Part shown: positions 35,151 to 63,636 of the stretch, piece after piece
Position numbering within the stretch: the first letter of the stretch is position 1
How the letters are laid out: each line of letters starts with the position of its first letter
Assembly: GCA_016930485.1 (NCBI GenBank)
Contig: JAFGGP010000050.1
Span: 15,370 to 79,369 of the forward strand
DNA from: Candidatus Omnitrophota bacterium
GTDB lineage: Bacteria; Omnitrophota; Gorgyraeia; JAFGGP01
DNA length: 64,000 bases
Direction: 5' to 3'
Made by a program: the position numbers and the translations under genes
Notes under the pieces: generated by a model
The model's database searches: none
Told to the model about the DNA's origin: nothing
The model's input: the letters and a program-made list of their open reading frames with translations, nothing else

Positions 35151-35179
35151 TTGACACACAACATATAGTATGATATAGT
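35151..35179 (+). promoter_or_regulatory. sigma70 promoter (TTGACA-17 nt-TATAGT) abutting the purB start
   Basis: TTGACA at 35151-35156 and TATAGT at 35174-35179. The purB ATG is at 35189. Confidence 0.55.
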
Positions 35180-35188
35180 TTGCTTCTC

Positions 35189-37373: not shown

Positions 37374-37380
37374 CTTTCTA

Positions 37381-37423
37381 GGACACATGTCACAGGAAAA
37401 ATACTTGTGACTTGTGACCTGTC
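37381..37423. repeat. Heptamer-unit hairpin (GACACAT/GTCACAG arm, AAAAATAC loop, TGTGACT/TGTGACC arm)
   Basis: Read directly. 12 of 14 positions pair. The loop-plus-arm AAAATACTTGTGAC is shared with the element at 43916. Confidence 0.8.
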
Positions 37424-37426
37424 GTT

Positions 37427-40324
37427 ATGAACATCTGGCATATCGAAGTCTTTAACAAAGAGGGTGTAGGCGATGTGGTCGGGCTCCAGCTTCTCCGGGA
37501 CATCAAGGAGCTGGGGATTGACGGGGTGGAGCGGGTTTGCTTTAAACAGGTCTATCTTCTTGAGGGGGAGTACAGCGCGGGAGACATAGAAAAAATCGCT
37601 CAGCGCTTTCTTGCCGATCCTATCTGTCAGGAGTTTTCCGTAGAATCGCTCGATGAGAAAGCGGCTGTGCTTCCGAAGGATACGGCCCGTACACACACCG
37701 TTGAGATTGCCTATAACCCGGGGGTAATGGATCCCTGGGAAGAGACTATCGGTAAAGGGATCATCGATCTTGGTTGTAAAGAGGCCCGTTCAGTCAAGAC
37801 AATCAAGAAGTATGTCATGGAAGGCTCGATATCTTCCGAGACGCTCGATACTATTTGTGACGAGTTGCTCTACAACAAGCTTATTCAGCATCGTATCAGG
37901 TCCTCAGAAAAAAGCGACATCGAATTTCTGCATTCCATTCCCGAATACACCTTTTCTCTCATTACCGTTGATCTTCTTTCCGCCGCCAATGAAGAACTTT
38001 TAGCAATCAGCAAGAACGCGCAGCTCTATCTCAGCCTGGATGAGATGAAGGCCATACAGGCACATTTTGTGCGACTGGGACGCAACCCTACCGACTGCGA
38101 GATTGAGACAATCGCGCAGACATGGTCGGAGCATTGTTGCCATAAGACATTTCGCGCCGCCATCGAAATGGAGGACAGGCAGATCGATAACCTTCTGAAA
38201 AGTACCGTTATGAAGGTTACCAAGGAACTTAATAAGGAATGGTGTCTGTCGGTCTTCAAAGATAATGCGGGAATTATCGCGTTTGACGAAAAAAACGCTA
38301 TCGCCGTAAAGGTAGAGACACACAATCATCCGTCAGCACTTGAGCCTTACGGAGGGGCCTCGACCGGGATCGGCGGGGTTATACGCGATATCCTCGGGGC
38401 AGGCCTCGGGGCAAGGCCCATTGCCAATACCGACGTCTTTTGTTTTGCACCGTTCGATATACCGGCACAGGAAATTCCCGGGGGAGTGCTTCATCCAAGG
38501 AGGATTATCAAGGGTGTTGTTTCGGGTGTGCGGGATTACGGCAACCGTATGGGGATACCAACGGTGAACGGGGCCGTTCTCTTTGATAAACAGTATCTGG
38601 GCAACCCGCTTGTCTACTGCGGGACAATCGGGATTATGCCGAAGGATATGTGCACCAAAAAGGTCGACCCGGGGGACGTTATTATAGCCGTTGGCGGAAG
38701 GACGGGGCGGGACGGTATTCACGGGGCAACCTTCTCATCCGGCGAGCTTACTTCTTCGACCAAAGAGACATTGAGTGGGGCAGTTCAGATCGGGAACCCG
38801 ATTGCCGAAAAAAAGGTGCTTGATGTACTTCTGGCGGCACGCGATAGAGGACTGTACAAGGCAATTACCGATTGCGGCGCAGGGGGATTCTCCAGCGCGG
38901 TGGGCGAGCTCGGCGAGGAGACCGGGGCGGAGGTACACCTCGAAAAAGTCCCGTTAAAATACGCGGGGCTCACCTACACCGAGATGTGGATTTCGGAATC
39001 ACAGGAGCGAATGGTGCTTGCGGCTGCCCCTGATAAGGCCGCCGAACTTATTGAGCTTTTTGCGAAGGAGGATGTGGAGGCGACCTGCATCGGAACCTTT
39101 ACCGATGATAAAAGACTGAAATTATATTATAACGACAACCTTGTCTGTGACCTCGATATGGAATTTCTCCATAGAGGAATGCCTCGGGTGAGACGGACGG
39201 CGAGGTGGAAAGTTCCCAGGAAAACACCCCTTTGTTTGAGGGCCTCTTTTTCCGAGTATGGCTCTTTTATTCTCAAGACCCTGGCCCATCCGAATGTGTG
39301 CAGCAAGGAGTGGATTATCAGACAGTACGACCATGAGGTACAGGCGGGAACGGTGAGTAAGCCGTTAGTCGGTGCCCGGAATGACGGACCGTCCGATGCG
39401 GCGGTTATGCGGCCACTGTTTCATTCCCGGCGCGGCATCGCCGTTGCAAACGGCATCAACTCGAAGTACGGTATATACGACCCGTACTGGATGGCAGCTT
39501 CTAATATTGACGAGGCGATACGACAGCAGGTGGCCGTTGGTGCCGACTTTGAAAAAATAGCACTTTTGGATAATTTTTGCTGGGGCAATCCCGAAGATCC
39601 TTATATCCTGGGTTCGCTGGTCAGGGCGGCAGAGGCCTGTTATGACATTGCCAGGGGATTCGGTTGCCCGTTTATTTCCGGCAAAGACAGTTTATATAAT
39701 GAATATGTGAGCGACAGGAAGAAGGTATCAATACCAGGCACCCTTCTTATTACCAGTATCGGTATTGTCGATGATGTTGGCAAGGCAGTTTCCATGGATT
39801 TTAAAAAACCGGGCGATTATGTCTATATCATCGGCGAGACCCGCAATGAACTTGCCGGTTCTGCGTTCTGCGATGTTGCGGGTCTTTCCGGGGGCGAGGT
39901 ACCAAGGGTGGATGTCGCGCGCGCACGGATAACCATGGAGAAACTCTCACAGGCGATCCGCACCGGAATAGTCAGCGCGGCTCACGATTGTTCTGACGGC
40001 GGTTTGGCCGTTGCAGTGTGTGAAATGGCCATGGCCGGTGAGGTCGGGGCGGACATAGACCTTGGCAGCGCACCGTGTTTTTCAGATATCACTCAGGGCT
40101 ATGAGGTATTATTCAGTGAGTCCAACAGCCGTTTTATCGTTTCGGTCCCTGCCGAGAGCTCCGGGGAATTCGAACGTCTTCTCGGCGATGTCAAGTTTGG
40201 GCTGCTCGGCAGAACGAAGGCCGAGCCCGATGTCCGTTTTATCAGTCTGGATAAGGCACAGAACATTACCCTGACACTCGCGGATATCAGGCATGCGTGG
40301 AAGAGCACGCTGGACTGGCAGTAA
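37427..40324 (+). CDS. purL: FGAM synthase, fused PurS-PurL
   Basis: 965 aa. An N-terminal ~80 aa PurS-like domain precedes PurL (ETHNHPSALEPYGGA, duplicated AIR-synthase-like domains). Confidence 0.95.
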   Translation: MNIWHIEVFNKEGVGDVVGLQLLRDIKELGIDGVERVCFKQVYLLEGEYSAGDIEKIAQRFLADPICQEFSVESLDEKAAVLPKDTARTHTVEIAYNPGVMDPWEETIGKGIIDLGCKEARSVKTIKKYVMEGSISSETLDTICDELLYNKLIQHRIRSSEKSDIEFLHSIPEYTFSLITVDLLSAANEELLAISKNAQLYLSLDEMKAIQAHFVRLGRNPTDCEIETIAQTWSEHCCHKTFRAAIEMEDRQIDNLLKSTVMKVTKELNKEWCLSVFKDNAGIIAFDEKNAIAVKVETHNHPSALEPYGGASTGIGGVIRDILGAGLGARPIANTDVFCFAPFDIPAQEIPGGVLHPRRIIKGVVSGVRDYGNRMGIPTVNGAVLFDKQYLGNPLVYCGTIGIMPKDMCTKKVDPGDVIIAVGGRTGRDGIHGATFSSGELTSSTKETLSGAVQIGNPIAEKKVLDVLLAARDRGLYKAITDCGAGGFSSAVGELGEETGAEVHLEKVPLKYAGLTYTEMWISESQERMVLAAAPDKAAELIELFAKEDVEATCIGTFTDDKRLKLYYNDNLVCDLDMEFLHRGMPRVRRTARWKVPRKTPLCLRASFSEYGSFILKTLAHPNVCSKEWIIRQYDHEVQAGTVSKPLVGARNDGPSDAAVMRPLFHSRRGIAVANGINSKYGIYDPYWMAASNIDEAIRQQVAVGADFEKIALLDNFCWGNPEDPYILGSLVRAAEACYDIARGFGCPFISGKDSLYNEYVSDRKKVSIPGTLLITSIGIVDDVGKAVSMDFKKPGDYVYIIGETRNELAGSAFCDVAGLSGGEVPRVDVARARITMEKLSQAIRTGIVSAAHDCSDGGLAVAVCEMAMAGEVGADIDLGSAPCFSDITQGYEVLFSESNSRFIVSVPAESSGEFERLLGDVKFGLLGRTKAEPDVRFISLDKAQNITLTLADIRHAWKSTLDWQ

Positions 40325-40334
40325 TAACTTTAAA

Positions 40335-40397
40335 AGCCTTCAGCCAGCAGCCTTCAGCCATCAGCCGCTGAAAGCTGACAGCTGACAGCTGAAAGCT
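40335..40397. repeat. Heptamer-unit hairpin ((NNTCAGC)x4 / (GCTGANN)x4)
   Basis: AGCCTTCAGCCAGCAGCCTTCAGCCATCAGC-C-GCTGAAAGCTGACAGCTGACAGCTGAAAGCT. The 5-nt cores pair and the 2-nt variable positions mostly do not. Confidence 0.85.
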
Positions 40398-40402
40398 AAA
40401 AA

Positions 40403-41269
40403 ATGAAAGAACTTATCGTAAAAACATGTGTACTTCGTGCCGCAGGGACGAACTGCGATAGAGAGACAGCCTATGCATTTGAACGCGCAGGCGCCCGATC
40501 GGAGATTATCCATATCAACCAGTTTGTCTCTCGCACCCGCACGCTGAACGAATTTCATATTCTGGCCATCCCGGGCGGATTTACCTATGGCGATGATGTT
40601 AGCTCAGGTAAGATACTGGCAAACGAACTGAAATATAATTTGTTTGATGATATCCGCCGCTTTGTAGAACAGGGGCGATTGATTATCGGTATCTGCAACG
40701 GCTTTCAAGTGCTGGTTAAATCGGGTCTCCTGCCGGATGTTGCCGGCGATTGTGAGATTGAGGCCTCACTTGTTTTAAATAACTCGGGCAAGTTCGAGGA
40801 CTGTTGGGTATATCTTAAACCTCCCCGGCCCATTACACGCTGTGTGTGGACGAACGGCATAGAGAGGGTTATCTATCTGCCTGTTGCGCACGGCGAAGGA
40901 AAGTTTGTGGTTAAGGGTAACACTGTACTTTCTTTACTCAAGGAGAATAACCAGATTGTATTTCGTTACTGTACCCCGGACGGCTCGCCAGGTCCGTTCC
41001 CGGTAAACCCCAACGGCTCGCTCGATGATATCGCCGGCATCTGTGACCCTACCGGCAGGATTTTAGGAATGATGCCACATCCGGAGAGGCACATTACTTT
41101 CTTTCATCATCCGCACTGGCACAGATGTTCCGAGAGAAAACAGGGTGACGGATTGAATATATTTGAGAACGGCGTTCAATATATTCAGAAGACGATACTT
41201 ACACAAGAATCAGGAGACATATCACAAGTCGCAGATAATGCAAATATCAAAAATCAAATGTCAAAATGA
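40403..41269 (+). CDS. purQ: FGAM synthase glutamine amidotransferase subunit
   Basis: GICNGFQ (Cys nucleophile) and MMPHPER motifs. The last ~15 codons run into the downstream repeat. Confidence 0.95.
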   Translation: MKELIVKTCVLRAAGTNCDRETAYAFERAGARSEIIHINQFVSRTRTLNEFHILAIPGGFTYGDDVSSGKILANELKYNLFDDIRRFVEQGRLIIGICNGFQVLVKSGLLPDVAGDCEIEASLVLNNSGKFEDCWVYLKPPRPITRCVWTNGIERVIYLPVAHGEGKFVVKGNTVLSLLKENNQIVFRYCTPDGSPGPFPVNPNGSLDDIAGICDPTGRILGMMPHPERHITFFHHPHWHRCSERKQGDGLNIFENGVQYIQKTILTQESGDISQVADNANIKNQMSK

Positions 41270-41445
41270 CCCTTCGATGCAACTCAGGGCAGGCAAACGT
41301 AAAATTCAAAAAGATTTTTTTAAAAATATTTACATTTTGATATGTCACTTTGATTTTCTTGTCCTGAGCGGCTAAGCCAAACTAAGTCGAAGGATGCATC
41401 TTGATTTTTGATTTAAAAAACTGGTGTCTTGGTGACTTTGAGAAG
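41215..41445. repeat. Composite nested palindromic element (about 230 nt)
   Basis: Outer arms ATCAAAAATCAAATG / CATCTTGATTTTTGATTT. Middle module CCTTCGATGCAACTCAGGGCAGGC / CTTGTCCTGAGCGGCTAAGCCAAACTAAGTCGAAGG. Inner arms AAAATTCAAAAAG / CATTTTGATATGTCACTTTGATTTT. Confidence 0.8.
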
Positions 41446-41459
41446 AAGGAGTAAAGAAG

Positions 41460-42932
41460 ATGTCTGCAAAACATAAGTGTGGTGTATTCGGAATTTTTGG
41501 CCATCCTGAAGCGGCTATGCTGACCTATTTAGGCATCTATGCGCTACAGCATCGGGGTGAAGAATCGGCAGGCATTGCTACTACCGATGGAAAAAAACTT
41601 TACAGCTACAAAGGGATGGGTCTTGTCGGTGATGTATTTAATGAGGAAATTCTGAAACGGTTAGAAGGCACCAGCGCTATCGGCCACGTAAGATATTCAA
41701 CGGCAGGATCGAGTCTCTTGAAAAATGCACAGCCTTTGGTGGTTGACTATGCCAAGGGGACGCTCGCCATCGCCCATAACGGTAATCTGGTTAACGCAAA
41801 TTTACTCAGGGATCAGCTCGAGGCATACGGCTCGATATTTCAGACGACCTTGGACAGCGAGATTATCGTTCATCTGATGGCAAAGCCCGAATATGCAACA
41901 CAGGAAGAAGGGCTTCTGCGATCCCTCCAGGCGATTAAAGGGGCCTATTCTCTGCTTCTCTTGAATAAGGAATATATGATTGGCGTCCGCGACCCGCACG
42001 GATTCCGTCCGTTGGTGCTGGGCAGATTTCAGAACGCCTATGTATTGGCGTCCGAGACGTGCGCGCTCGATCTTCTGGAGGCAGAATTTATAAGGGAAAT
42101 CGAACCGGGTGAGGTGGTTTTTATCAGCAAGAAAGGCATTCGTTCGGAAAAGCCGTTTGCAAAAAAACCGACCCGCACCTCGCACTGTATTTTTGAACAT
42201 GTCTACTTTGCCCGGCCCGATTCTTTTCTGTTTGGGGACACGGTCCATCTTGTCCGCGAGAATCTAGGCAGACAGCTTGCCCGGGAGCACCCGGTCAAGG
42301 CCGATATTGTCATACCGGTGCCGGACTCCGGAAACTCTGCGGCGTTAGGCTACAGTGCCGAGAGCGGCATACCGCTTGAGCAGGGTCTCATTAGAAATCA
42401 TTATATCGGAAGGACCTTTATTCAGCCGGCGCAGGGCATCAGGGATTTCAAAGTCAGGGTAAAGATTAATTTTTTAAAGGAGGTGCTGAAGGGCAAGCGA
42501 GTTGTTATTATCGATGATTCAATCGTGCGTGGCACTACCTGCAAAAAATATGTGAAGAATCTCAGAGATGCGGGTGCGGAAGAGGTGCATATGAGAATCA
42601 GTTGTCCGCCGATCAAACACCCCTGTTTTTACGGTATTGATTTTCCGAGCCCAAAAGAACTGATTGCCTCGGGGCATTCTATCGAAGAGATCAGGAGGTT
42701 TCTCGGAGCGGATTCGCTGGGGTATCTTTCGCTCGAAGGACTTCTCAATGCCGTAAGCGGACCCGATACACACTACTGCACGGCCTGTTATAGCGGGGAA
42801 TATCCGACCGAAACCGGTACCTATACCGACAAGCTGCATCTGGAGCGCGAGCGCATAGGCACTATCGGTGAGGGGCCGGCAGGGGAGCAGGATCACAGGA
42901 AGGGGATCAAAAAGATATGGCCGTTAAGCTGA
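41460..42932 (+). CDS. purF: Amidophosphoribosyltransferase
   Basis: The CGVFGIF N-terminal nucleophile follows a short propeptide. PRTase motif VVIIDDSIVRGTT and a C-terminal Cys cluster are present. Confidence 0.95.
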   Translation: MSAKHKCGVFGIFGHPEAAMLTYLGIYALQHRGEESAGIATTDGKKLYSYKGMGLVGDVFNEEILKRLEGTSAIGHVRYSTAGSSLLKNAQPLVVDYAKGTLAIAHNGNLVNANLLRDQLEAYGSIFQTTLDSEIIVHLMAKPEYATQEEGLLRSLQAIKGAYSLLLLNKEYMIGVRDPHGFRPLVLGRFQNAYVLASETCALDLLEAEFIREIEPGEVVFISKKGIRSEKPFAKKPTRTSHCIFEHVYFARPDSFLFGDTVHLVRENLGRQLAREHPVKADIVIPVPDSGNSAALGYSAESGIPLEQGLIRNHYIGRTFIQPAQGIRDFKVRVKINFLKEVLKGKRVVIIDDSIVRGTTCKKYVKNLRDAGAEEVHMRISCPPIKHPCFYGIDFPSPKELIASGHSIEEIRRFLGADSLGYLSLEGLLNAVSGPDTHYCTACYSGEYPTETGTYTDKLHLERERIGTIGEGPAGEQDHRKGIKKIWPLS

Positions 42933-43915
42933 CCTATAAAAAAAGCGGTGTTGACGTAAAAAAGGCCGATCTATTTGTTCAGGGCATCCGATCGGTGATC
43001 GCCACAACTCCTCAGAGGGGCGTTCTGAGGGATGTAGGGTGTTTTGCGTCTCTCTACGATGCCGGACTTTCCCGCTACCGAAACCCCATTCTGGTCTCCT
43101 CCACGGACGGTGTCGGGACAAAAATAAAGATTGCCCGGCTGCTTAATTGTTACTCGACGATAGGCATCGACCTGGTGGCTATGAATGTGAATGATATTAT
43201 TACTGTCGGCGCACGACCCCTGTTTTTTCTGGACTATATTGCGACCGGCAGGGTGCGGCCTCGCCAGTTAACCGATATCGTCAGAGGTATCGCAGCGGGT
43301 TGCATTGAGGCGGACTGTGCCCTTTTGGGCGGGGAGACCGCCGAGATGCCCGGTATCTACCAGAAGGGAGACTTTGACCTGGCCGGTTTTTGTGTCGGGG
43401 TATGCGAAAAAAGACAGCTGCTTTCCCCGGAAAAGATGCGCCCCGGTGACCGGATTATCGGCGTTGCATCGAGCGGTGTTCACTCAAACGGCTTTTCGCT
43501 GGTGCGCAGGATATTCAGCGAGGGCTCACTCCGGAAGGATAAACACCTGGCAAAAGAACTGCTGACGCCGACACGCATTTATGTAAAATGTGTAGAGCGG
43601 GTTATGGCGCAATGCAGACTGCATGCTGTTATTCATGTTACCGGAGGCGGTTTCCACAGGAGGATTGTCACGTTCTTAAACCGTGTGCTTGGAAAAAGGG
43701 GGCGTGCCGAGGTGGATGTCAAGGCATGGCCGGCTCCCGAGATTTTTCGGGTCATCCAGAAGAAGGGTGGCATATCGACCCGTGAGATGTTTCATACGTT
43801 TAATATGGGGGTCGGGCTGGTTCTTGTCTGTGCCAGACAGGATACAGATAGGGCCCTGAACGCAGTGCAACAAAGCGGTTTTGATGCGTGGGTAATCGGG
43901 CGGATAACTAAATAG
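42917..43915 (+). CDS. purM: AIR synthetase
   Basis: LTYKKSGVD, DGVGTK, DMLAxNxND-like MNVNDIIT and GGETAEMPG motifs. 16-nt overlap with purF. Confidence 0.95.
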   Translation: MAVKLTYKKSGVDVKKADLFVQGIRSVIATTPQRGVLRDVGCFASLYDAGLSRYRNPILVSSTDGVGTKIKIARLLNCYSTIGIDLVAMNVNDIITVGARPLFFLDYIATGRVRPRQLTDIVRGIAAGCIEADCALLGGETAEMPGIYQKGDFDLAGFCVGVCEKRQLLSPEKMRPGDRIIGVASSGVHSNGFSLVRRIFSEGSLRKDKHLAKELLTPTRIYVKCVERVMAQCRLHAVIHVTGGGFHRRIVTFLNRVLGKRGRAEVDVKAWPAPEIFRVIQKKGGISTREMFHTFNMGVGLVLVCARQDTDRALNAVQQSGFDAWVIGRITK

Positions 43916-43980
43916 ACACAGGACACATGACACAAGACACAGGTAAAATACTTGTGACCTGTGACATGTGACCGGTGACT
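43916..43980. repeat. Heptamer-unit hairpin ((GACACAN)x4, TAAAATAC loop, (TGTGACN)x4)
   Basis: Begins at the base after the purM stop codon. Same family as 37381 and the intragenic array at 58274. Confidence 0.85.
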
Positions 43981-43993
43981 CGAAAAGATTATT

Positions 43994-45286
43994 ATGAAGA
44001 AAAAAGTACTGGTTATCGGTTCAGGCGGCAGGGAACACGCCCTGGTATGGAAGCTCTCGCAGAGTCATCGCGTCGGAAAGATATATGCAGTTCCGGGAAA
44101 CGGCGGGATGAGAGAGATGGCAGAGACTATCCCTATAGATGTCGGCGATCTTGAACAAATAGCTGTTTTTGCCAAGGAAAAAGGGATCGACTTAACTATT
44201 GTTGGCCCTGAGGCACCGCTTGTCAGTGGTATAGTTAACCTATTCAATGAAAATGGGTTACGAATATTCGGTCCGACAAAAGAGGCAGCACAATTAGAGG
44301 GGAGCAAGGTTTTTACCAAGCGGCTTCTTAAGGAGGCGGGTATCCCAACGGCCGACTTTCAGGTATGTGAGAATAGCAACGAGGCAAAGGCCTTTATTAA
44401 GGACAAAGGGGCCCCGTTAGTCATTAAGGCGGACGGTCTGTGTGCCGGCAAGGGTGTTATCGTAGCCCTCTCAGAGGAGGAGGCGCTTGCCGCGGTCGAT
44501 TCTATTATGATCGACCGGAAATTTGGCGCCAGCGGTTCGCAGATTTTGATTGAAGAACTTCTCACGGGGGAAGAGGCCTCTATTATTGCCTTTGTCGACG
44601 GCAGTGATTTTTTGCTGCTTCCCTCCTCCCAGGATCATAAGAGGGTCGGCGATAATGATACAGGGGCGAATACCGGCGGCATGGGGGCGTATTCACCGGC
44701 CCCGGTTATCACCGGGGAGCTTTTGAAAGAGATAGAAGAGACGGTAATCGCCCCGACTATCGCGGCGATGGGCAGGAAAGGCATGCTGTTTAACGGGGTG
44801 CTCTATTGCGGACTTATGATTACCCGAAGAGGTCCTCAGGTGTTGGAGTATAATGTGCGGTTCGGAGACCCGGAGGTTCAGGCGATACTGCCGCGTCTTA
44901 CAGGAGATCTTATGGAGTATCTTGAGGCAACCGTTGACGGTACCCTGGCGCAGCAAACCGTTACCGTTGACCAAAGAGATTGTGTGTGCGTCGTTCTCGC
45001 CTCGGGCGGTTATCCGGAGAATTATGAAAAGGGAAAGGTAATTACCGGGCTTGAGAAAATAAGGAACCGGGAGGATGTTATTGTATTTCATGCGGGCACC
45101 AGACAGGGGACGGACACCCTTCTGACAAACGGGGGCAGGGTGTTAAATGTGGTCGCCCTTGGTGACGGGATAGAGCAGGCTATCGATACCGCCTACGCCG
45201 CTATCAGGGATATCCGTTTTGAGGGGATGTATTACAGGAGCGATATAGGATTCCGGGCATTACAAAGAAATAATCTAAAACCCTAA
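43994..45286 (+). CDS. purD: GAR synthetase
   Basis: MKKKVLVIGSGGREHAL, GANTGGMGAY and EYNVRFGDPE motifs. Confidence 0.95.
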   Translation: MKKKVLVIGSGGREHALVWKLSQSHRVGKIYAVPGNGGMREMAETIPIDVGDLEQIAVFAKEKGIDLTIVGPEAPLVSGIVNLFNENGLRIFGPTKEAAQLEGSKVFTKRLLKEAGIPTADFQVCENSNEAKAFIKDKGAPLVIKADGLCAGKGVIVALSEEEALAAVDSIMIDRKFGASGSQILIEELLTGEEASIIAFVDGSDFLLLPSSQDHKRVGDNDTGANTGGMGAYSPAPVITGELLKEIEETVIAPTIAAMGRKGMLFNGVLYCGLMITRRGPQVLEYNVRFGDPEVQAILPRLTGDLMEYLEATVDGTLAQQTVTVDQRDCVCVVLASGGYPENYEKGKVITGLEKIRNREDVIVFHAGTRQGTDTLLTNGGRVLNVVALGDGIEQAIDTAYAAIRDIRFEGMYYRSDIGFRALQRNNLKP

Positions 45287-45436
45287 ACTCTAAATCCGAA
45301 ATCCTAAATAAATCCAAAATTCAAATGACCAAAACCCAAAACAAAAAATGATAAGGAAGTTTTGAACATTTTGATTTTGAGTTTTGAGCTTATTTAGAAT
45401 TTAGAGTTTTGGATTTTAGGATTTATTTAATAAGAA
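45265..45436. repeat. Large heptamer-unit hairpin (CTAAA(T/C)N / AAATCCN arm versus NGATTT / TTTAG arm)
   Basis: Arms of about 70 nt flank the loop AAAAAATGATAAGGAA. The left arm begins within the last purD codons. Confidence 0.8.
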
Positions 45437-45462
45437 TAAAGAATAGAAAGCAGGGGGGTAGT

Positions 45463-45975
45463 ATGGCAACAAAAAAGAAACCCGTAGTTAGCATAGTGAT
45501 GGGCAGCGATTCCGATGCTCCACATCTTAAAGATGCCGTCGCGGTTCTGGAGGAATTTGGAATAGGATATGAGGTACGCGTGCTTTCCGCTCATCGCACG
45601 CCGGATGAGGCGGCGCGCTATGCAAAAGGCGCACGAAAGCGAGGCATCAACGTTATTATCGCAGCCGCCGGAGGCGCGGCCCACCTGCCCGGGGTTCTCG
45701 GTTCGCTTACCGGCATTCCCGTTATCGGCGTCCCTATGATGACCAGGGCCTTCAAAGGGATCGATTCACTCTTATCTATATTGCAGATGCCCAAGGGTAT
45801 TCCGGTTGCGACAATGGCTGTTGGGTCGGCGGGCGGCAGAAATGCGGCACTGTATGCGGTGCGCATTCTCGCACTCACAGACCGGCGCATAGAAACCAGG
45901 CTCGGCAGGCATATCAAGGACATGGCACAACAGGTGCTGTCAAAGGACAGAAGGGTCAAGAGGCAGTTTGCATAG
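45463..45975 (+). CDS. purE: N5-CAIR mutase / AIR carboxylase catalytic subunit
   Basis: VVSIVMGSDSD, SAHRTP and AGGAAHLPG motifs. Start trimmed to the ATG at 45463; the upstream part of the track ORF lies in the repeat. Confidence 0.93.
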   Translation: MATKKKPVVSIVMGSDSDAPHLKDAVAVLEEFGIGYEVRVLSAHRTPDEAARYAKGARKRGINVIIAAAGGAAHLPGVLGSLTGIPVIGVPMMTRAFKGIDSLLSILQMPKGIPVATMAVGSAGGRNAALYAVRILALTDRRIETRLGRHIKDMAQQVLSKDRRVKRQFA

Positions 45976-46554
45976 ATGAGGCTGGTAGAACTGAATCCGC
46001 AGAAACCCGACACGGCAATTATCGAAGAGGCGGCGTCAATCTTAGAAGAGGGCGGCCTTATTATCTTTCCGACAGAGACGGTGTACGGATTGGCGGTTCT
46101 GGTTGATAACCAGCCGGCGGTTGAGAAGTTATATCAGTTAAAAAACCGATCTTTTGACAAACCGCTTACCCTGCATATTCACGATCGTGCCGCTGTAGAA
46201 GAGATTATCGATACAATTCCGCCGTGCGCACAGGAGCTGATGGGCCGCTACTGGCCCGGTCCGCTGACGATCGTTATGCTGGCGGGAGACGGCGGCAAGG
46301 TCGGTTTTCGTATGCCGCGCAATGTCATTGCCCGTGAGATCATCGGGGCCACCGCCGGTCTGATCGGCGCGACAAGCGCTAATGTCAGCGGGGCGGTACC
46401 GCCGCTTACTGTCTCGGATATCCCGCAGCGCCTTTTGGACGATGTCGATCTGGTTATTGATGGAGGCAGGACAGAGTACGACGGGGCATCGACAATCGTT
46501 GATGTGAGTAATGGCACGCCCGTTATTGTGCGACAAGGACCGATAACGATATAA
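45976..46554 (+). CDS. tsaC: L-threonylcarbamoyladenylate synthase (YwlC/TsaC/Sua5 family)
   Basis: PTETVYGLA, RMPRN and SANVSG motifs. 192 aa single-domain form. Confidence 0.9.
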   Translation: MRLVELNPQKPDTAIIEEAASILEEGGLIIFPTETVYGLAVLVDNQPAVEKLYQLKNRSFDKPLTLHIHDRAAVEEIIDTIPPCAQELMGRYWPGPLTIVMLAGDGGKVGFRMPRNVIAREIIGATAGLIGATSANVSGAVPPLTVSDIPQRLLDDVDLVIDGGRTEYDGASTIVDVSNGTPVIVRQGPITI

Positions 46555-46558
46555 CTCT

Positions 46559-46622
46559 GAGCCATCAGCCGTCAGTTATCAGCCTTAAGCTGCTGAAAGC
46601 TGACAGCGGATAGCCGAAGGCT
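46559..46622. repeat. Heptamer-unit hairpin (TCAGC/GCTGA family)
   Basis: GCCATCAGCCGTCAGTTATCAGCCTTAAGC / TGCTGAAAGCTGACAGCGGATAGCCGAAGGC. Same unit family as 40335. Confidence 0.8.
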
Positions 46623-46626
46623 TACA

Positions 46627-47148
46627 ATGGCCGACAAGAACACCAGGACTGTTTTGTTTGTATGCACCGGCAACAGCTGTCGCAGCGCAATGGCCAAGGG
46701 GCTGCTTGAAGACTTAGTGAGCAGGCGCCAGGATGAGTTGAGAGAAAAGGTGCCCGGGGTGCAGGTGGTGGTGAGGTCGGCCGGTGTTATGGCGCTACCC
46801 GGATTTGCGGCAAGCGCCGGTGCCATTGAGGCGATGCGGGAAACAGGGATCGATATATCGTTCCATCTGACACAACCGCTTACCAATGAGATGATCGACG
46901 AGGCCGATCTCATTCTGGTCATGGAAGAGCGCCATCTGGAAGAGATAATTAACAGAAGGCCGGGGGCGCGGGATAAGGCTTTTTTGCTCAAGATATACGG
47001 CTTACATGAGGAGGAAGGGGGAAAGCTTGCAGATCGGGACGTTGCCGATCCGATCGGAAAGCCGCTTGAGGGATATCAGTGTTCTCTGGCCGAAATCAGG
47101 GAATACGTAGAGAGGGTGTTTGAAAAATTTATCTTAGAGAAAGAATAA
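46627..47148 (+). CDS. Low-molecular-weight protein phosphatase (YwlE-like Arg/Tyr phosphatase)
   Basis: P-loop VCTGNSCRS and a DVADP segment carrying the general-acid Asp. Confidence 0.88.
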   Translation: MADKNTRTVLFVCTGNSCRSAMAKGLLEDLVSRRQDELREKVPGVQVVVRSAGVMALPGFAASAGAIEAMRETGIDISFHLTQPLTNEMIDEADLILVMEERHLEEIINRRPGARDKAFLLKIYGLHEEEGGKLADRDVADPIGKPLEGYQCSLAEIREYVERVFEKFILEKE

Positions 47149-47512
47149 CCGCCAGTTCACGAGTTATCGAGTTGAACATGGTTAGCGAGTTAGCCAGTTC
47201 GCGGGTTAGCGGGTTCACCAGTTAACGAGTTGGAAATAGTGAACGAGTTTGCCGGTTCTACCCTTCGACTTTGCTCAGGGCAGGCGAGTTCACGAGTTCT
47301 TCTTTAGCGTGCAGCCCTTTGATAAACTCAGGACAAGCGATTAGCGGCTAGCGTATAGAAAAAGAAAAAATCTAACCACTAAACGCTATCCGCTAGACGC
47401 TATAACGAACCCGAAGAACCCGTTGAACTCGAAGAACCAATGAACTATTTTTAAACCCGAGCAACTCGAAGAACCCGCGAACCCGGGCAACCCAAAGAAC
47501 TTTGAGGAGCAG
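47149..47512. repeat. Composite repeat region (about 360 nt) with CGAGTTN/GAACTCG heptamer arms and inner TAGCG/CGCTA hairpin
   Basis: Left arm is CAGTTCACGAGTTATCGAGTTGAAC... and right arm is GAACCCGAAGAACCCGTTGAACTCGAAGAACC... . Also contains CCTTCGACTTTGCTCAGGGCAGGC modules shared with 41270. Confidence 0.8.
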
Positions 47513-47515
47513 GCA

Positions 47516-47974
47516 ATGAAAATCGCTATCGGATCAGATCACAGAGGCTACCCGTTAAAACAGGAATTGATCGCTTTTCTGAAGGAAAAAGGCCATGAGG
47601 TAACAGATCTCGGAACCGATAGCACCGACAGTTGCGATTATCCACTCTACAGTTTCGCAGTGGCGCGCGCAGTGAGCAATGGGGCGGCCGAGTGCGGCAT
47701 TGTCGTGTGCAATACAGGGATTGGTGTCTCTATGGTTGCGAACAAGATTAGAGGGGTGCGTGCGGCACTGTGTTATGAGACAGCCGCCGCCTCTACCGCC
47801 AGGCGGCACAACAATGCCAACGTTCTGGCGCTGGGGGCGGGCTACCTTACCGCTCGGACGGCCAAGGAGATAACACAGGCGTTTTTAACCGGGCAATTTG
47901 AAGGCGGAAGGCACAAGAGACGCGTTGATCAGATAAGCGATATAGAAAATCAGACAGAAGACAATAGACTATAG
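47516..47974 (+). CDS. rpiB: Ribose-5-phosphate isomerase B
   Basis: MKIAIGSDHRGY, VCNTGIGVSMVANK and RRHNNANVLALG motifs. Confidence 0.93.
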   Translation: MKIAIGSDHRGYPLKQELIAFLKEKGHEVTDLGTDSTDSCDYPLYSFAVARAVSNGAAECGIVVCNTGIGVSMVANKIRGVRAALCYETAAASTARRHNNANVLALGAGYLTARTAKEITQAFLTGQFEGGRHKRRVDQISDIENQTEDNRL

Positions 47975-48300
47975 ACCAAGAGTTAAAAAGGGCACCAGTG
48001 ACTTTCAATGACAGATGACAAATTTCCCTGCTAAAGAGCTGGCAGGCAAATGACAAATGAATCGTTTAATGACAAATCCCAAAAAAAGAAATAAAAAGAT
48101 TTTTTGATTTATTTACCCGTCTCGCCACACTGTGTGGCGAGATATCGCCTTTGGCGGAAAAGCTGAGCGCTGAGAGCTAAAAGCTTAAAAAATACATAGT
48201 TCGCGAGTTCGCGGGTTGAAAGTAGTTAACAAAGCGAGTTCTTGGGTTTTTTGAACTCGAAGAACCCGTGAACCCAAATAACCCGAGGAACCAGTAAAAG
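47975..48300. repeat. Composite repeat region mixing AATGACA, GCTGAG and GAGTTC/GAACTC heptamer arrays plus a CTCGCCACA/TGTGGCGAG hairpin
   Basis: Read directly. Shares unit families with 40335, 47149 and 49588. Confidence 0.75.
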
Positions 48301-48309
48301 GAGTACGAG

Positions 48310-49587
48310 ATGTTTCTTAAGACATTGCGAGAGGTCGACCCTGAAATTTTTGATATTATCTTCGATGAGACAAGGCGTCAGCACGAGAATATCGAGTTAA
48401 TTGCGAGCGAAAACTTTACCTCGGAGGCGGTGCTTGAGGCGCAGGGCTCGGTTCTGACCAACAAGTATGCCGAGGGCTACCCGGCGGCCCGCTGGTACGG
48501 GGGATGTGAAAATGTGGACCGGGCCGAAGGCCTCGCGATTGAACGCGCAAAGAAATTATTTGGGGCCGAACACGTCAATGTACAACCGCATTCCGGGACA
48601 CAGGCCAATATCGCCGTGTATCTTGCCGCGCTTGAGGTGGGCGACGGCCTGATGGCCATGGATCTTGCCTGCGGCGGACACCTGACGCATGGACACCCGC
48701 TGAATATCTCCGGCAGATTTTATCGGATTATCCCGTATGGGGTGAGCCGCCAGAGCGAGCAGATCGACTATGATGAACTCGCGCAGACAGCCAGACGCGA
48801 GAAACCAAAGATGATCCTTGCCGGAGCAAGCGCCTATCCGCGCACTATCGACTTTGACACATTTAAGGAAATCGCCGATAGCGTCGGGGCGCTGCTTATG
48901 GTAGACATGGCGCATATTGCCGGGCTGGTTGCGGCAGGACTACATCCGTCTCCGGTGCGGATGTCCGATTACGTCACCACCACTACCCACAAGACGCTTC
49001 GTGGTCCCCGCGCAGGCATGATTCTGTGCAAAGAGGCATATGCAAAACGGATTGACCGGGATGTCTTTCCCGGTAATCAGGGCGGCCCGTTAATGCATGT
49101 TATTGCCGCAAAAGCAGTTGCACTCAAAGAGGCGCTGGAGCCCCGTTTTAAGGAGTATCAAGGGCAGATCGTTGCCAATGCCAGAACCTTGGCTGAGGAG
49201 TTGGCGGGGTTGGGCTACCGGATTGTCTCGGGCGGGACCGATAATCATCTGATGCTCGTCGATGTCCTGACGAGCCGCTCCATTACCGGCAAGGCCGCCG
49301 CGACCGCTCTCGACAGGGTAAAGATCACGGTCAATAAAAATCTGATACCGTTTGATGAAAAGTCACCCTTTGTCACCAGCGGCATCAGACTGGGCACGCC
49401 GGCGGCGACGAGCCGCGGGATGAAGGAGCCCGAAATGAAAAAAATCGCCGCTATCATCGATGCTACTTTGTCGGCCCCGGAGGACGAGGCGGTCATAGAA
49501 AAGTCTAGGAGACAGATTGCGGAGTTAACCGAACAGTTTCCGTTGTATGCCGAACGCCGGGAAGCCATGGCACTCGTCGCGAAGTAA
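48310..49587 (+). CDS. glyA: Serine hydroxymethyltransferase
   Basis: [15 protein letters not shown] and [12 protein letters not shown] (PLP Lys) motifs. Confidence 0.96.
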
Positions 49588-49815
49588 CCACTTCGCAATG
49601 GTAGATGTCAAATCTCAAATGACAAATGAATCACTCAAATCTAAATGACAAACACGTCTGTCATCCCGTGCTGCGACACGGGATGACAGAGAAATGTAGC
49701 CCCCATTTTGATGTGGGGGAAAATGGATTCCGGAGCAAATCCGGAATGACTCGGATTCTATTTGGATTTTAAAGATTCATTTGGGTTTTGACATTTTGAT
49801 TTTGGAATTTGAATA
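49588..49815. repeat. Multi-branch composite element: outer AAATGAC/GTCATTT-type arms enclosing three internal hairpins
   Basis: Internal hairpins are CTGTCATCCCGTG-CTGCGA-CACGGGATGACAG (13 bp perfect), CCCCCAT...ATGTGGGGG and ATTCCGG-AGCAAAT-CCGGAAT. The outer arms are TCAAATGACAAATGAATCACTCAAATCTAAATGACAAA and TTTGGATTTTAAAGATTCATTTGGGTTTTGACATTTTGATTTTGG. Confidence 0.8.
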
Positions 49816-49825
49816 AGGAGCTCCT

Positions 49826-55268: not shown

Positions 55269-55341
55269 ATAAACAGGGAAGGTGAACTATAATCATACTA
55301 CTATTACTAGAGACCGTTACAACCAGACAGGGAGGCTTATT

Positions 55342-56855: not shown

Positions 56856-56965
56856 ACTGATGCGTTGTTACATTGATAAACCGCTAAACTGTTTTATTGT
56901 TAAATTGTTTCATTGCTTAATTGTTGCGCTGATGCATTGTTAAATTGCTACAGCATTGAGAGAGT
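56856..56965. repeat. Heptamer-unit array (AATTGTT-like), left arm flanking the four-helix-bundle ORF
   Basis: TGTTAAACTG...TTGTTAAATTGTTTCATTGCTTAATTGTTGCGCTGATGCATTGTTAAATTGC. Confidence 0.75.
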
Positions 56966-56968
56966 AAG

Positions 56969-57344
56969 ATGAAAAAATATTTAGAGTTAAACGATATAGA
57001 TGCTTACCGAATTGCTTTGGATTTGTCTAATTATATTTGGAACATTGTTATCAAATGGGATTATTTTGCCAAAGATACCGTCGGCAAACAGTGGGCCAAA
57101 GCTATTGATTCTATCTCGGCTAATATTGCCGAAGGTTTTGACAGGTATTTTAAAAAAGATAAAGTTACTTTTTATCGTTACAGTTATGGTTCTATTAATG
57201 AATCTTTAGATTGGCTTGAAAAGGCAAATAGACGAACCTTGTTAAAAAAACAATGAATATCAACATATACTGAAGGAATTAAAAAAATTGCCAAAAGAAA
57301 TTCATGCATTAATTAATTTTACTAATGAACGCCTCAAAAAGTAA
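56969..57344 (+). pseudogene. Four-helix-bundle protein (23S rRNA intervening-sequence protein family), apparent +1 frameshift in an A7 run
   Basis: The N-terminal 95 aa (LDLSNYIWNIV...ISANIAEGFDRY...FYRYSYGSINESLDWLEKA) match the family. Frame 0 stops at 57254-57256. The expected C-terminus (NEYQHILKELKKLPKEIHALINFTNERLKK) continues in the +1 frame at 57252..57344. The A7 run is at 57244-57250. Confidence 0.6.
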
Positions 57345-57417
57345 CAGTTTAACAATTTGTCAGTGAAGCAGTTAGGAATTAAACGATACAACAATGGAGC
57401 AGGGCAGCAATTGAACA
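57345..57417. repeat. Heptamer-unit array (AACAATT-like), right arm complementary to 56856..56965
   Basis: CAGTTTAACAATTTGTCAG...CAGCAATTGAACAATGG, ending at the radical SAM 2 start codon. Confidence 0.7.
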
Positions 57418-63476: not shown

Positions 63477-63488
63477 ATAACAGCATTA

Positions 63489-63636
63489 GTCACACGTAGC
63501 ACGTTGCAGGTAACACGTCGCACGTAACGCAGGAAAGGCACAATCAGTTTCCGCGGGACGTGATACTTGTTATGTTTACTTGATGCGGATAATATAGAAC
63601 CTGATACCTGCTACGTGATACTTGATAAAATGAAAC
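63489..63636. repeat. Heptamer-unit imperfect hairpin (CACGTAN arm / NTACGTG-GATAC arm)
   Basis: TCACACGTAGCACGTTGCAGGTAACACGTCGCACGTAACGCAGG ... GACGTGATACTTG...CTACGTGATACTTGAT. Confidence 0.65.

Follow-up and report, generated by a model that had tools for sequence, protein, structure and literature searches.

Tandem 7-bp repeats (STRR, short tandemly repeated repetitive sequences) form a hairpin between hupS and hupL in cyanobacteria such as Nostoc/Anabaena, where their function is unknown and roles in transcript stability or translational coupling have been proposed (PMC2670836). Xanthomonas holds 70–75 convergent GGGAATC pairs with stem-loop potential; like the Nostoc GGGGAYT repeats, they are transcribed, their length varies between close species and their type is preserved, and heptamers are over-represented among bacterial SSRs, for which polymerase slippage has been suggested (PMC4692102). 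Geobacter metallireducens has paired tandem repeats of several classes (hepta-, octa- and nonanucleotide), which were read as IHF/HU sites in front of operons, together with intragenic heptanucleotide elements (GGACCGG x4) (PMC2700814). The REP/BIME/REPIN elements of enterobacteria and pseudomonads are small imperfect palindromes within transcription units, often at operon junctions, that have spread within genomes (PMC3116915).

The window analysed here, 64,000 nt of a Candidatus Omnitrophota MAG, contains a purine/glycine operon of ~15 kb (purB-nrdR, the pur-glyA operon) in which hairpin-forming stretches of 7–9-nt tandem repeats fill nine of the twelve gene junctions. As in STRR, tandem 7-nt units of several families per genome lie between co-transcribed genes, where inverted arrays can form a hairpin. 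Unlike STRR, whose unit sequences reportedly go back to Mazel et al. 1990, the window has other units in another phylum (Omnitrophota), arrays almost always come with a complementary partner, and the elements, which are nested, directly adjoin or take the place of stop codons and also occur in phage contigs. REP elements resemble those of the window in position and spread but have single conserved palindromes as arms, without tandem sub-repeats, and are tied to RAYT transposases; they can stabilise upstream mRNA. The RNase III hairpins of phage T7 are likewise imperfect, intercistronic and interrupted by internal loops in long polycistronic RNAs, but the periodic 5-bp/2-nt architecture of the window is no known RNase III determinant. 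With G. metallireducens the window shares classes of 7–9-nt tandem repeats in opposite-strand pairs at variable distance, copies within genes, and lineage specificity (the Geobacter repeats are absent from G. sulfurreducens); the likeness is one of description, and stop-to-start occupancy and hairpin folding are not described for Geobacter (PMC2700814). The Xanthomonas and Nostoc repeats are also intergenic heptamer arrays (PMC4692102), but they are G-rich and quadruplex-forming, whereas the units of the window have no G-tracts.

Elements of the pur-glyA operon

The elements, numbered E1 to E9, and the promoter-like site that probably, from its sequence, starts the purB-nrdR transcription unit containing them are as follows.

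35151..35179, + strand: promoter-like site, TTGACA-17-TATAGT with TG, directly upstream of purB
37379..37421, + strand: E1, purC>purSL, GACACAN/NTGTGAC hairpin, MFE -20.3, z -4.5
40335..40397, + strand: E2, purSL>purQ, NNTCAGC/GCTGANN hairpin, z -4.7
41237..41432, + strand: E3, purQ>purF, composite of inverted heptamer arrays with a 23-aa PurQ extension
43917..43977, + strand: E4, purM>purD, GACACAN/NTGTGAC hairpin, z -6.1
45275..45429, + strand: E5, purD>purE, CTAAATN/NATTTAG and related A-rich/T-rich heptamer arms, z -4.3
46558..46624, + strand: E6, tsaC>PTP, degenerate TCAGC/GCTGA hairpin, z -3.2
47149..47505, + strand: E7, PTP>rpiB, nested composite, MFE -120.9, z -5.0
47975..48300, + strand: E8, rpiB>glyA, composite of solo arrays and hairpins
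49598..49812, + strand: E9, glyA>nrdR, composite, z -7.3

The original prediction had placed hairpins in these nine gaps, and every one indeed contains long, imperfect hairpins with arms made up of short units in tandem; its five unit families were correct, as was its picture of structured modular repeats of several families in one transcription unit, with 5-nt paired cores and about two variable positions. The three element-free junctions were also as it had described them (purB>purC non-repetitive, purF/purM with a 16-nt overlap, purE/tsaC abutting). Its heptamer arms held for most families: at a threshold of 15/21 self-matches (a stricter threshold was also run), period 7 gave 15 arrays, 699 nt in all, where locally shuffled sequence gave 0.5, and the other periods from 4 to 12 gave 0–3 arrays each, but in the CGAGTT/GAACYCG family (PTP>rpiB, rpiB>glyA) the units repeat every 8 nt along the 5' arm and every 8–9 nt along the 3' arm. 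The elements lie in the gaps as claimed but are not purely intergenic, as arrays already start within the 3' ends of purQ, purD and rpiB; PurQ has a C-terminal extension of 23 aa. The true start of purE is the ATG at 45463, so that the purD>purE gap is 45287-45462.

Folding z-scores ranged from -3.2 to -7.3 except in two composite gaps. Those listed for the five short gaps (E1, E2, E4, E5, E6) are against dinucleotide shuffles, 0 of 200 of which folded equally well, and five element-free control gaps gave +0.6 to -1.9. For the long gaps mononucleotide shuffles were used, with rpiB>glyA at -2.4 and purQ>purF at -1.5 beside the listed values of E7 and E9, and the control gap purB>purC at +0.1.

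Within the genome the elements fall into family pairs: E1 with E4, E2 with E6, and E7 with E8. E1 lies 5 nt past the stop and 5 nt ahead of the ATG, with no SD in the spacer, and its loop and inner arm (GG[A/T]AAAATACTTGTGAC) are almost identical to those of E4, which has four units per arm and a TAG stop fused to the first unit (aaaTAGACACA). E2 has four units per arm at an exact period of 7. A covariance model built from phage-contig elements only scored E2 at 58.7/51.2 bits (E about 1e-13/1e-11) and E6 at 42.9/39.4 bits (E about 6e-9/6e-8); the 3' arm of E6 contains an SD-like GAAGG. Three long gaps are nested composites that include other repeats. E3 has outer A-rich/T-rich heptamer arms at 41237-41268 (within the 3' end of purQ) and 41397-41432, an inner A/T hairpin, and the motif CCCTTCGA..CTCAGGGCAGGC (41270-41294; inverted copy, 41358-41393); CCCTTCGA occurs twice exactly against 0 expected. 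In E7, outer arms of NNNGAGTT octamers (47153-47258) and GAACYCGNN 8–9-mers (47405-47505) surround CCCTTCGA-type motifs (47261-47285, 47315-47338) and an inner TAGCG heptamer hairpin (47339-47406). E8 combines solo AAATGAC arrays (48006-48079, broken by a CCCTGC..GGCAGGC motif at 48026-48047) with a GC hairpin at 48119-48143 and, at 48162-48185, a solo array of GCTGAGN; its CGAGTT/GAACYCG hairpin, at 48195-48300, has an SD behind it. The outer arms of E9, AAATGAC/CAAAT at 49598-49652 and a T/G-rich complement at 49756-49812, surround three GC hairpins (49656-49691, 49696-49723, 49725-49750).

Copies elsewhere in the window, in relatives and in phages

Confinement to this region had been raised as a possible objection; further arrays lie outside the operon, at 55809-58346 (within ORFs), 56857-57415 and 63488-63627, and the element types recur in other assemblies. 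Those in the window are the following.

55809..56348, + strand: in-frame arrays within radical-SAM gene 1, GTCACAG at 55809-55846 and complementary TGTGAC at 56314-56348
56857..57415, + strand: E10, inverted octamer-array hairpin whose arms (56857-56952 and 57338-57415) pair in the MFE fold
58104..58346, + strand: in-frame solo arrays within radical-SAM gene 2, AAATGAC 58104-58170, GACACAN 58273-58299, ACACGTN 58316-58346
63488..63627, + strand: ACACGTN array and partly complementary ACGTGAT/CTGATAC array, downstream of a glycosyltransferase gene

The arrays of radical-SAM gene 1 are ~470 nt apart and 85% complementary, and each matches a 21-codon insertion relative to the paralogue. E10, between the two radical-SAM genes, has a loop that coincides exactly with a frameshifted PF05635 (23S rRNA IVS protein, a four-helix bundle) gene at 56969-57343 (E 3.6e-17). 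REP-like GC hairpins follow the ACACGTN array at 63722-63809. Pfam revealed no transposase or RAYT in the window, and no target-site duplication was visible at the elements.

Omnitrophota relatives keep the gene order purM-purD-purE-tsaC-PTP-rpiB-glyA-...-nrdR, followed by a divergent SurA-like gene. In relatives at ~60% PurD identity the arrays are absent and the junctions overlap or measure 1–25 nt, and the elements are therefore lineage-specific insertions; the site of E6 is a fused TsaC-PTP ORF in two of the relatives (L082, L083), and the position of E9 is occupied by a dCMP-deaminase gene. Conservation of the hairpins at orthologous gaps, the point on which the original prediction had said it could fail, was thus not found, the elements being absent, replaced or decayed in relatives.

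The unit families of the window also occupy stop-to-start junctions in other Omnitrophota. The GACACAN hairpin was found in 17 metagenome stretches, including about four (L091, L095, L097, L103) that resemble unrelated ACATG-type simple repeats; where both flanks are known it fills the gap between co-directional ORFs (9/9), several, like E4, have the TAG joined to their first unit, and two of the contigs are Omnitrophota. In these genomes, ascertained only via GACACA, there are also arrays of AAATGTC/AAATGAC, a hairpin of the TCAGC family and the CTTCGA..CTCAGG motif, and three families and an unrelated 25-nt motif co-occur in lineages with PurD no more than 60% identical. In two other Omnitrophota clades the same junction may be empty, hold a different element or hold a decayed one. 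At thiS>thiG and thiG>thiH there is an overlap, a GC hairpin, or a GACACAN hairpin replacing the stop codon; from ptsI to ilvN, L108 is tight throughout and L099 and L107 have four elements each, different or partly shared, with most of the right arm lost in one orthologous element and a solo array without a hairpin at ilvB>ilvN of L099 (MFE -0.4). Inserted cassettes bring their own SD. Separate REP-like GC hairpins are also present in these loci.

Uncultured tailed-phage contigs are rich in the TCAGC family, at gene junctions (up to 29 arrays in 14 kb, a median of 8 nt past the stop), and the same architecture recurs at very many junctions of phage structural operons. Some phage contigs have a single family only, at very high density, and a GGGAATN/NATTCCC hairpin turned up in phage contig L156 alone.

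Origin and possible roles of the arrays

E1-E9 are several families of dispersed palindromic repeats whose arms consist of 7–9-nt units with a ~5-nt core and ~2 free positions. We see about an even chance that they belong to the same kind of heptanucleotide-array repeat as STRR, Xanthomonas GGGAATC and the Geobacter repeats, that is, spreading and expanding palindromic repeats tolerated at operon junctions. That they are intrinsic terminators or attenuators, or an assembly or chimera artefact, is scarcely credible. Stable stem-loops between genes in a MAG might suggest as much, but U-tracts are absent at the intergenic stem-loops, terminator-like sites number 16 where 18.7 are expected, on the + strand they do not exceed chance inside the operon and none falls at an element, and Rfam gave no match to a riboswitch, leader or any other family. 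An artefact is unlikely because an independent Logan assembly, from SRR13394437, matches at 100% across 4412 nt that take in the purM>purD element, and because these element types occur in many unrelated assemblies (JGI, ENA, NCBI, IMG/VR). These readings are refuted as far as sequence analysis permits. Separate microsatellite births, one per gap, without copying from one site to another or any link between genomes, are very improbable and already disfavoured: among the long SSRs of bacteria heptamers are an over-represented class (PMC4692102), runs of identical units point to slippage and the arms can slip in register, but this reading leaves complementary arrays side by side unexplained and conflicts with the common loop of E1 and E4, the exact repetition of CCCTTCGA and the co-occurrence of three families and the 25-nt motif, both across distant lineages and in genomes ascertained via one family.

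It is possible, though rather unlikely, that the hairpins are selected as functional RNA, either as processing or stability determinants (RNase III-type sites as in phage T7, or 3' exonuclease barriers like REP in malE-malF) or as couplers that keep the downstream start hidden until the ribosome from upstream gets there; both versions would set differential expression along the operon. The elements lie directly past stops and just ahead of an SD or ATG in one transcription unit without internal terminators, and no SD follows the hairpins preceding purSL, purQ and purD, so that the hairpin may matter for translation of these genes. In this one operon nine of twelve junctions carry an element, compared with none of the ~25 inter-operon spacers in 1-35 kb, where random junk would be expected too; this clustering counts against spreading repeats and could mean a function in the operon mRNA. 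The dense phage junctions point the same way, as do the periodic internal loops, which resemble the bubbles of T7 RNase III sites, and the PF05635 gene in a stem-loop. Some 23S rRNA IVS, which RNase III excises, enclose such a gene, but E10 lies outside any rRNA gene. Against functional RNA stand the turnover between close relatives, solo arrays without hairpins (ilvB>ilvN of L099; 48162 and 58104 in the window), in-frame copies within ORFs, where cleavage would wreck the mRNA, and the lack of a sense-strand preference (24 G·U against 25 A·C oppositions in the arms; of the phage hairpins, 29 were more stable in sense and 27 in antisense, p=0.88). No covariation between arms was found at the variable positions, and hairpin stability is therefore not maximised. 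Arrays of binding sites for a protein, on DNA (IHF/HU) or on RNA (a ring-shaped reader with a motif every 7 nt), seem improbable. HutP, which reads NAG triplets, is a precedent for the latter. The 5-nt core, strictly conserved and regularly spaced, with variable positions only at set phases and with spacers that do not pair preferentially, would suit such a reader, the strand symmetry is compatible with dsDNA recognition, three heptamers make two helical turns, some phage contigs hold one dense family, and the Geobacter authors proposed binding (PMC2700814). A single modular protein nevertheless fits poorly with the five or more unrelated cores of this one operon and the further ones in the window, which would call for several proteins; the elements are dispensable in relatives, copies lie within coding regions, and no candidate protein was identified.

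For spreading repeats we propose that arrays lengthen and shorten through replication slippage of the unit, as runs of identical units and published reasoning suggest. Whole elements or arm pairs would be copied to new sites in one genome, and would be retained or passed around among Omnitrophota and some phages, as near-identical intragenome copies, cross-lineage families and insertion polymorphism between close relatives indicate. Selection would then purge copies except where harm is low, a pattern that is seen and whose cause is proposed: at stop-to-start junctions of genes transcribed together, where they often take over the stop codon and provide an SD, and in permissive protein loops, in lengths that are multiples of 3. 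In polycistronic mRNA the arms are predicted to fold into an imperfect hairpin that would loop out the insert and leave no more than about 10 nt between the upstream stop and the downstream start, so that formerly overlapping, coupled genes might stay coupled; the hairpin may also serve as a modest 3' barrier. Against this reading, besides the clustering, no mobilising enzyme was found, the TCAGC density at gene junctions of compact phage genomes hints at function, and the conserved cores imply some constraint that simple slippage and drift do not explain.

The original prediction had set this system apart from known repeats, which holds for CRISPR, MITEs, terminators and Rfam families but not for STRR and the Xanthomonas and Geobacter repeats. 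Because they come and go quickly between relatives, the elements resemble tolerated, spreading repeat DNA more than they do a conserved regulatory device of the pur operon. Repeat DNA of this kind is already known and poorly understood, and the Omnitrophota elements would be a new member of it.

The purB-nrdR operon and its junction hairpins

By NCBIfam annotation, purB (35180-36481), purC, a purS-purL fusion, purQ, purF, purM, purD and purE form a co-directional cluster that continues through tsaC, a low-molecular-weight phosphatase gene (PTP), rpiB, glyA and nrdR and ends at 50314. Because a strong sigma-70-like site lies directly upstream of purB and no terminator-like sites above chance occur inside the operon on the + strand, purB-nrdR is probably one transcription unit of ~15 kb. 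The original prediction placed hairpins of facing short-unit tandem arrays in nine gaps of this cluster, and we find them in all nine as long imperfect folds: E1 (purC>purSL), E2 (purSL>purQ), E3 (purQ>purF), E4 (purM>purD), E5 (purD>purE), E6 (tsaC>PTP), E7 (PTP>rpiB), E8 (rpiB>glyA) and E9 (glyA>nrdR). Against dinucleotide-preserving shuffles, five short elements have folding scores of z = -3.2 to -6.1 on the + strand and -3.5 to -6.8 on the - strand, with 0 of 200 shuffles folding as well, while five element-free control gaps range from +0.6 to -1.9. Against mononucleotide shuffles, the long gaps PTP>rpiB, rpiB>glyA and glyA>nrdR score -5.0, -2.4 and -7.3 and the control gap purB>purC +0.1; the purQ>purF gap scores -1.5 by itself, a longer fold putting the start of the outer arm inside purQ.

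Each arm strings together 3-12 short units, and there are at least six distinct unit cores in the 64-kb window. Period 7 is represented by 15 arrays (699 nt) against 0.5 expected, other periods being near background, so that the heptamer periodicity first proposed stands in general; it fails for the CGAGTT/GAACYCG family (PTP>rpiB, rpiB>glyA), whose period is 8 in one arm and 8-9 in the other. Arrays extend into the 3' ends of purQ, purD and rpiB. PurQ has a 23-aa extension relative to a relative, and purE starts 18 codons downstream of its longest-ORF start. No ribosome-binding site (SD) follows the hairpins that precede purSL, purQ and purD; a split SD, carried from the upstream gene to the ATG by the hairpin, is kept as speculation, only weak SD-like strings being present. 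Self-folding of direct arrays whose heptamer is quasi-palindromic (TGTGACA, CAGCTGA) was not adopted as an explanation because it fits two families only.

The three long gaps are nested composites, which also contain a 25-nt motif, CCCTTCGAnnnnnCTCAGGGCAGGC, and REP-like GC hairpins. A similar motif, CACTTCGACAGAGCTCAGGA, occurs at the fba>ilvD junction of L107, another Omnitrophota genome (L-numbers denote fetched metagenome, MAG or IMG/VR contigs). The REP-like GC-rich hairpins, for example TGTCATCCCG..CGGGATGACA, GGATTCCGG..CCGGAATGAC and GTAGGGGCGGG..CCCGCCCCTAC, form a second class that sits at operon junctions and in the loops of array hairpins.

Copies of the 25-nt motif and REP-like GC-rich hairpins
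41270-41294 and 47261-47285: two exact copies of CCCTTCGAnnnnnCTCAGGGCAGGC (0 expected), nested in array hairpins
47315-47338 and 48026-48047: degenerate copies of CCCTTCGAnnnnnCTCAGGGCAGGC
41358-41393: inverted copy of CCCTTCGAnnnnnCTCAGGGCAGGC
49656-49750 and 63722-63809: REP-like hairpins in the window
L104/L105, thiG>thiH and PALP>uvdE: REP-like hairpins
L107, metK>ahcY: REP-like hairpin

Arrays elsewhere in the window and inside genes

Confinement of the elements to this contig region, as a sign of an assembly or chimera fault, had been named as one outcome that would undo the original prediction. The elements extend beyond the operon, with further arrays at 55809-58346, 56857-57415 and 63488-63627, and an artefact is unlikely: 4412 nt, the purM>purD element included, are identical in a Logan assembly of SRR13394437. 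In the ~25 spacers of 1-35 kb no arrays were seen, and these spacers resemble ordinary promoter and terminator regions.

The stretch 55282-58614 is a RiPP-like cluster of a PqqD-like ORF and two radical-SAM paralogues (27% identical). Both paralogues, downstream of the PqqD-like ORF, contain in-frame arrays, at positions that match the gaps in their alignment, and the insertions encode low-complexity loops. In paralogue 1 both insertions are exactly 21 codons long (63 nt, nine heptamers), which fits the multiple of 21 nt that heptamer runs need to keep the reading frame, and its two arrays, ~470 nt apart, are complementary to each other. Between the two paralogues lies E10, an inverted-octamer-array hairpin (56857-57415) whose loop is exactly filled by a frameshifted PF05635 gene (56969-57343). 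PF05635 is the 23S rRNA intervening-sequence protein, a four-helix bundle; E10 has the stem and ORF of such an intervening sequence, yet it stands between protein-coding genes, in mRNA rather than rRNA. No further PF05635 genes were found in the fetched loci. Another Omnitrophota genome, L093, carries two in-frame, intragenic GACACAG arrays (2809-2854 and 3104-3148) in a MiaB-like radical-SAM/TPR/SPOR gene. A tRNA/tmRNA scan found none. Distant from the pur operon, a second, divergent PurD-like ATP-grasp ORF (7351-8643; GARS_A and GARS_C domains only, weak scores) clusters with an LD-carboxypeptidase and a LysW-like zinc-ribbon ORF.

Insertion, turnover and shared unit families

The window's PurD is 100% identical to a protein that NCBI attributes to a Candidatus Omnitrophica MAG. 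The next-best PurD among 5.8 billion proteins is 60% identical, which makes covariation across the lineage's own orthologous gaps impossible, and the best match in a PurD search of genome contigs has 53% identity, so that no close relative is present there; hairpins were therefore compared across junctions in two other Omnitrophota clades. The gene order purM-purD-purE-tsaC-PTP-rpiB-glyA-(dCMP deaminase)-nrdR, with a divergent SurA-like gene after it, is conserved in three Omnitrophota contigs whose PurD is 58-60% identical. None of their junctions holds arrays: neighbouring genes either overlap by 4 nt or are separated by 1-25 nt with a plain SD. TsaC and the phosphatase form a single fused ORF in two of the three (L082, 11728-12792; L083, 11812-12882), whereas in the window they are separate genes with E6 between them (46555-46626). 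Since these relatives keep the gene order with tight, array-free junctions, the elements are insertions in this lineage into formerly tight junctions. Between glyA and nrdR the window has only a 238-nt repeat composite (49588-49825), in the place taken by the dCMP-deaminase gene in its relatives.

The genome-contig search returned heptamer arrays from many phyla, and inverted or solo arrays adjoin purD in unrelated MAGs, a phylogenetically widespread kind whose hosts are an unclassified bacterium, Sedimentibacter-like Firmicutes, Eubacteriales and Nomurabacteria.

Arrays adjacent to purD in unrelated MAGs
L004, 172-357 and 4224-4290
L050/L062
L053
L037

Insertion polymorphism and decay are visible between closer relatives. 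At thiS>thiG in the L089 clade (MnmG 85-88% identical), L089 has a GACACAN hairpin, and L104 and L105 have arrays of different units. At thiG>thiH, one contig of this clade has the two genes overlapping by 4 nt, and two others have a 45-nt GC hairpin between them; in L089 a 77-nt GACACAN/TGTGTC hairpin stands in place of the stop codon (CAA TAA -> CAG TCA CAA GAC...), adding 12 residues up to a new stop in the hairpin loop. In the L099 clade, L108 (MetK 88%) is tight at all ptsI-ilvN junctions, and L099 and L107 (93%) have elements at four junctions each, two of them shared. One of the shared junctions has orthologous elements, that of L107 being without most of its right arm (MFE -8.8), and the other has unrelated ones; among the L099 elements is a solo array that does not fold (MFE -0.4). 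The inserted cassettes bring their own SD at the end (AGGAG..CGACGAatg, three times in L099). Comparison of filled with empty junctions (L099 against L107/L108, L089 against L104) revealed no target-site duplications.

The unit families of the window recur well beyond it. A metagenome scan for GACACANGACACA...TGTGACNTGTGAC gave 17 stretches, of which ~4 (L091, L095, L097, L103) resemble unrelated ACATG-type simple repeats. The remainder are like E1 and E4, with a GACACA/GTCACA mix on the left, TGTGAC/TGTGTC on the right and often an A-run/T-run loop; in several the stop codon TAG is fused to the first unit, as in E4. The nine stretches for which both flanks are known all take up the whole gap between two co-directional ORFs. 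By their MnmG and MetK neighbours, two of the source contigs (400 kb and 714 kb) belong to Omnitrophota. The GACACA family was the sole route to these genomes; they or close relatives of theirs also have AAATGTC/AAATGAC arrays, a TCAGC/GCTGA hairpin and a CACTTCGAC..GCTCAGGA motif resembling the window's 25-nt motif.

Scanning IMG/VR for the TCAGC hairpin gave at least 120 stretches; the matches listed hold 179 such hairpins in 1.06 Mb (median GC 0.62). In uncultured tailed-phage contigs (GC about 0.6; L109-L228, e.g. L175, L134, L123, L135) a TCAGCNN/GCTGANN hairpin stands at nearly every gene junction. Among the matches listed there are up to 29 arrays in 14 kb, on contigs encoding portal, major head and terminase, and the hairpins lie between co-directional genes, a median of 8 nt past the stop by crude ORF calls. 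Contig L156 differs in having many families, GGGAATN/NATTCCC included. The nearest isolate portal protein is 30% identical, and BLAST of a TCAGC element against GenBank phages gave no match, possibly owing to the low-complexity filter. The GACACA pattern had 0 matches in viral contigs. A covariance model built from 47 phage-contig elements only matches E2 (58.7 bits, E 2e-13) and E6 (42.9 bits, E 6e-9), as well as L107 (two copies) and L104, and on these sequence scores E2 and E6 can be assigned to the phage TCAGCNN/GCTGANN hairpin family defined here.

Pairing, known repeat kinds and interpretation

The arm-to-arm oppositions of 14 window hairpins comprise 348 Watson-Crick, 24 G·U, 25 A·C and 61 other. 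An A·C opposition is a G·U on the opposite strand, and the window hairpins have no sense-strand wobble bias (24 against 25). Likewise, of the 57 phage hairpins whose flanks are clear, 29 fold better as the sense strand and 27 as the antisense (p = 0.88). Complementarity fell only slightly (0.67-0.78 against 0.61-0.72) when one arm was shifted by 7 or 14 nt. The two spacer positions of 47 phage elements, whose columns alone are informative because the search pattern fixed the cores, pair at 83.6%, against 83.2% when shuffled (153 of 500 shuffles as high). From these opposition, sliding, strand and spacer-pairing tests, the structure is thus one of 5-bp helices separated by free 2x2 positions, with cores constrained and spacers not, and nothing singles out the sense RNA as the molecule under selection. 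Register shifts and pair counting show no covariation at the variable spacer positions, and we therefore abandoned the view of the arms as simple inverted duplicates whose pairing is maintained by compensation.

The elements consist of ~7-nt tandem units at many sites per genome, belong to more than one unit family and are mostly non-coding, lying between co-transcribed genes where adjacent inverted arrays form a predicted hairpin. This architecture matches that of known tandem heptanucleotide repeats, and the elements are therefore a further member of a known, poorly understood kind. To this kind belong the cyanobacterial STRR heptamers, which include a hairpin between the co-transcribed hupS and hupL (PMC2670836), the convergent GGGAATC pairs of Xanthomonas (PMC4692102) and the paired tandem hepta-, octa- and nonanucleotide repeats specific to G. 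metallireducens, which also has intragenic heptanucleotide elements (PMC2700814). The G. metallireducens pairs, which fall into several classes and have 3-5 tandem units of 7-9 nt on opposite strands, variably spaced, are the closest known example, and the window architecture fits their description (PMC2700814). The likeness is one of description: the Geobacter units are GTTGCTYN, TCTCCGTS[Y] and MTYCTGA, and the E10 octamer TTGTTNNA has no more than a loose resemblance to GTTGCTYN. STRR proper is known from filamentous heterocystous cyanobacteria only, whereas the window's units are GACACAN, TCAGCNN, AAATGAC and others and its host is Candidatus Omnitrophota. The canonical STRR1-3 units were reportedly described by Mazel et al. 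in 1990.

Other kinds fit less well. REP/REPIN families have one conserved imperfect palindrome of 20-40 nt, where the window has arms of short-unit arrays. Among the ~57 ORFs of the window, the part of the genome covered, no RAYT (IS200/IS605-like) or other transposase was found. A MITE was rejected for want of target-site duplications at the filled and empty junctions compared, and a CRISPR array because the window's units are contiguous, degenerate and 7-9 nt long rather than identical 25-50-nt repeats with unique spacers. Rfam gave 0 matches at gathering thresholds and nothing relevant at E<=1, where the two matches were chance miRNA precursors (E about 0.2).

The best-supported reading is that the elements are spreading or expanding palindromic repeats. 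Arrays may lengthen by slippage and elements may be copied between sites. They would survive where harm is small: at stop-to-start junctions, where the RNA hairpin would loop the insert out and keep stop and start close, with a possible effect on coupling, and also in protein loops that tolerate insertions whose length is divisible by 3. A functional RNA role of the junction hairpins we consider rather unlikely. The dense occupation of one operon beside empty spacers, the very high density in compact phage genomes, the conserved unit cores and the SD-less starts behind three of the hairpins speak for it; strand bias and covariation are both lacking. An RNase III site would here be an imperfect duplex, predicted to span at least 20 bp. 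That the arrays are protein-binding sites seems very improbable. Terminators are disfavoured, there being no + strand site at the elements and counts of GC stem plus U-tract at chance level, as are independent local births, given families shared with other genomes, and artefact, given the identical independent assembly.

We regard as quite improbable a bolder possibility, that the cores (TCAGC, GWCAC, AATGAC and others) are recognition sites of a putative sequence-reading machinery common to Omnitrophota and a large group of uncultured phages, the elements forming a mobile 'intercistronic cassette' system. If this were true, the machinery could be a periodic RNA-binding factor or a nuclease/transposase by which the cassettes are copied to stop/start junctions, and the cassettes would both spread themselves and reprogramme how polycistronic mRNAs are processed and translated.

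Tandem heptanucleotide repeats have a literature reaching back to 1990, and the window is an unusually dense natural case of them: elements from five unit families or more fill nine junctions of a single housekeeping operon. New with respect to the literature consulted are the unit families common to divergent Omnitrophota, the great abundance of TCAGCNN/GCTGANN at gene junctions of uncultured tailed phages and the clean presence/absence/replacement polymorphism between close relatives at stop-to-start junctions, which includes stop-codon replacement and in-frame protein insertions. In practice, gene callers lengthen or mis-start ORFs at arrays (PurQ by 23 aa, purE called 18 codons early), proteins gain low-complexity loops from them, and operon junction length is a poor guide to coupling. 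A function or a mobilising enzyme, if found, would matter for how operons are expressed in phages and in a major uncultured phylum.
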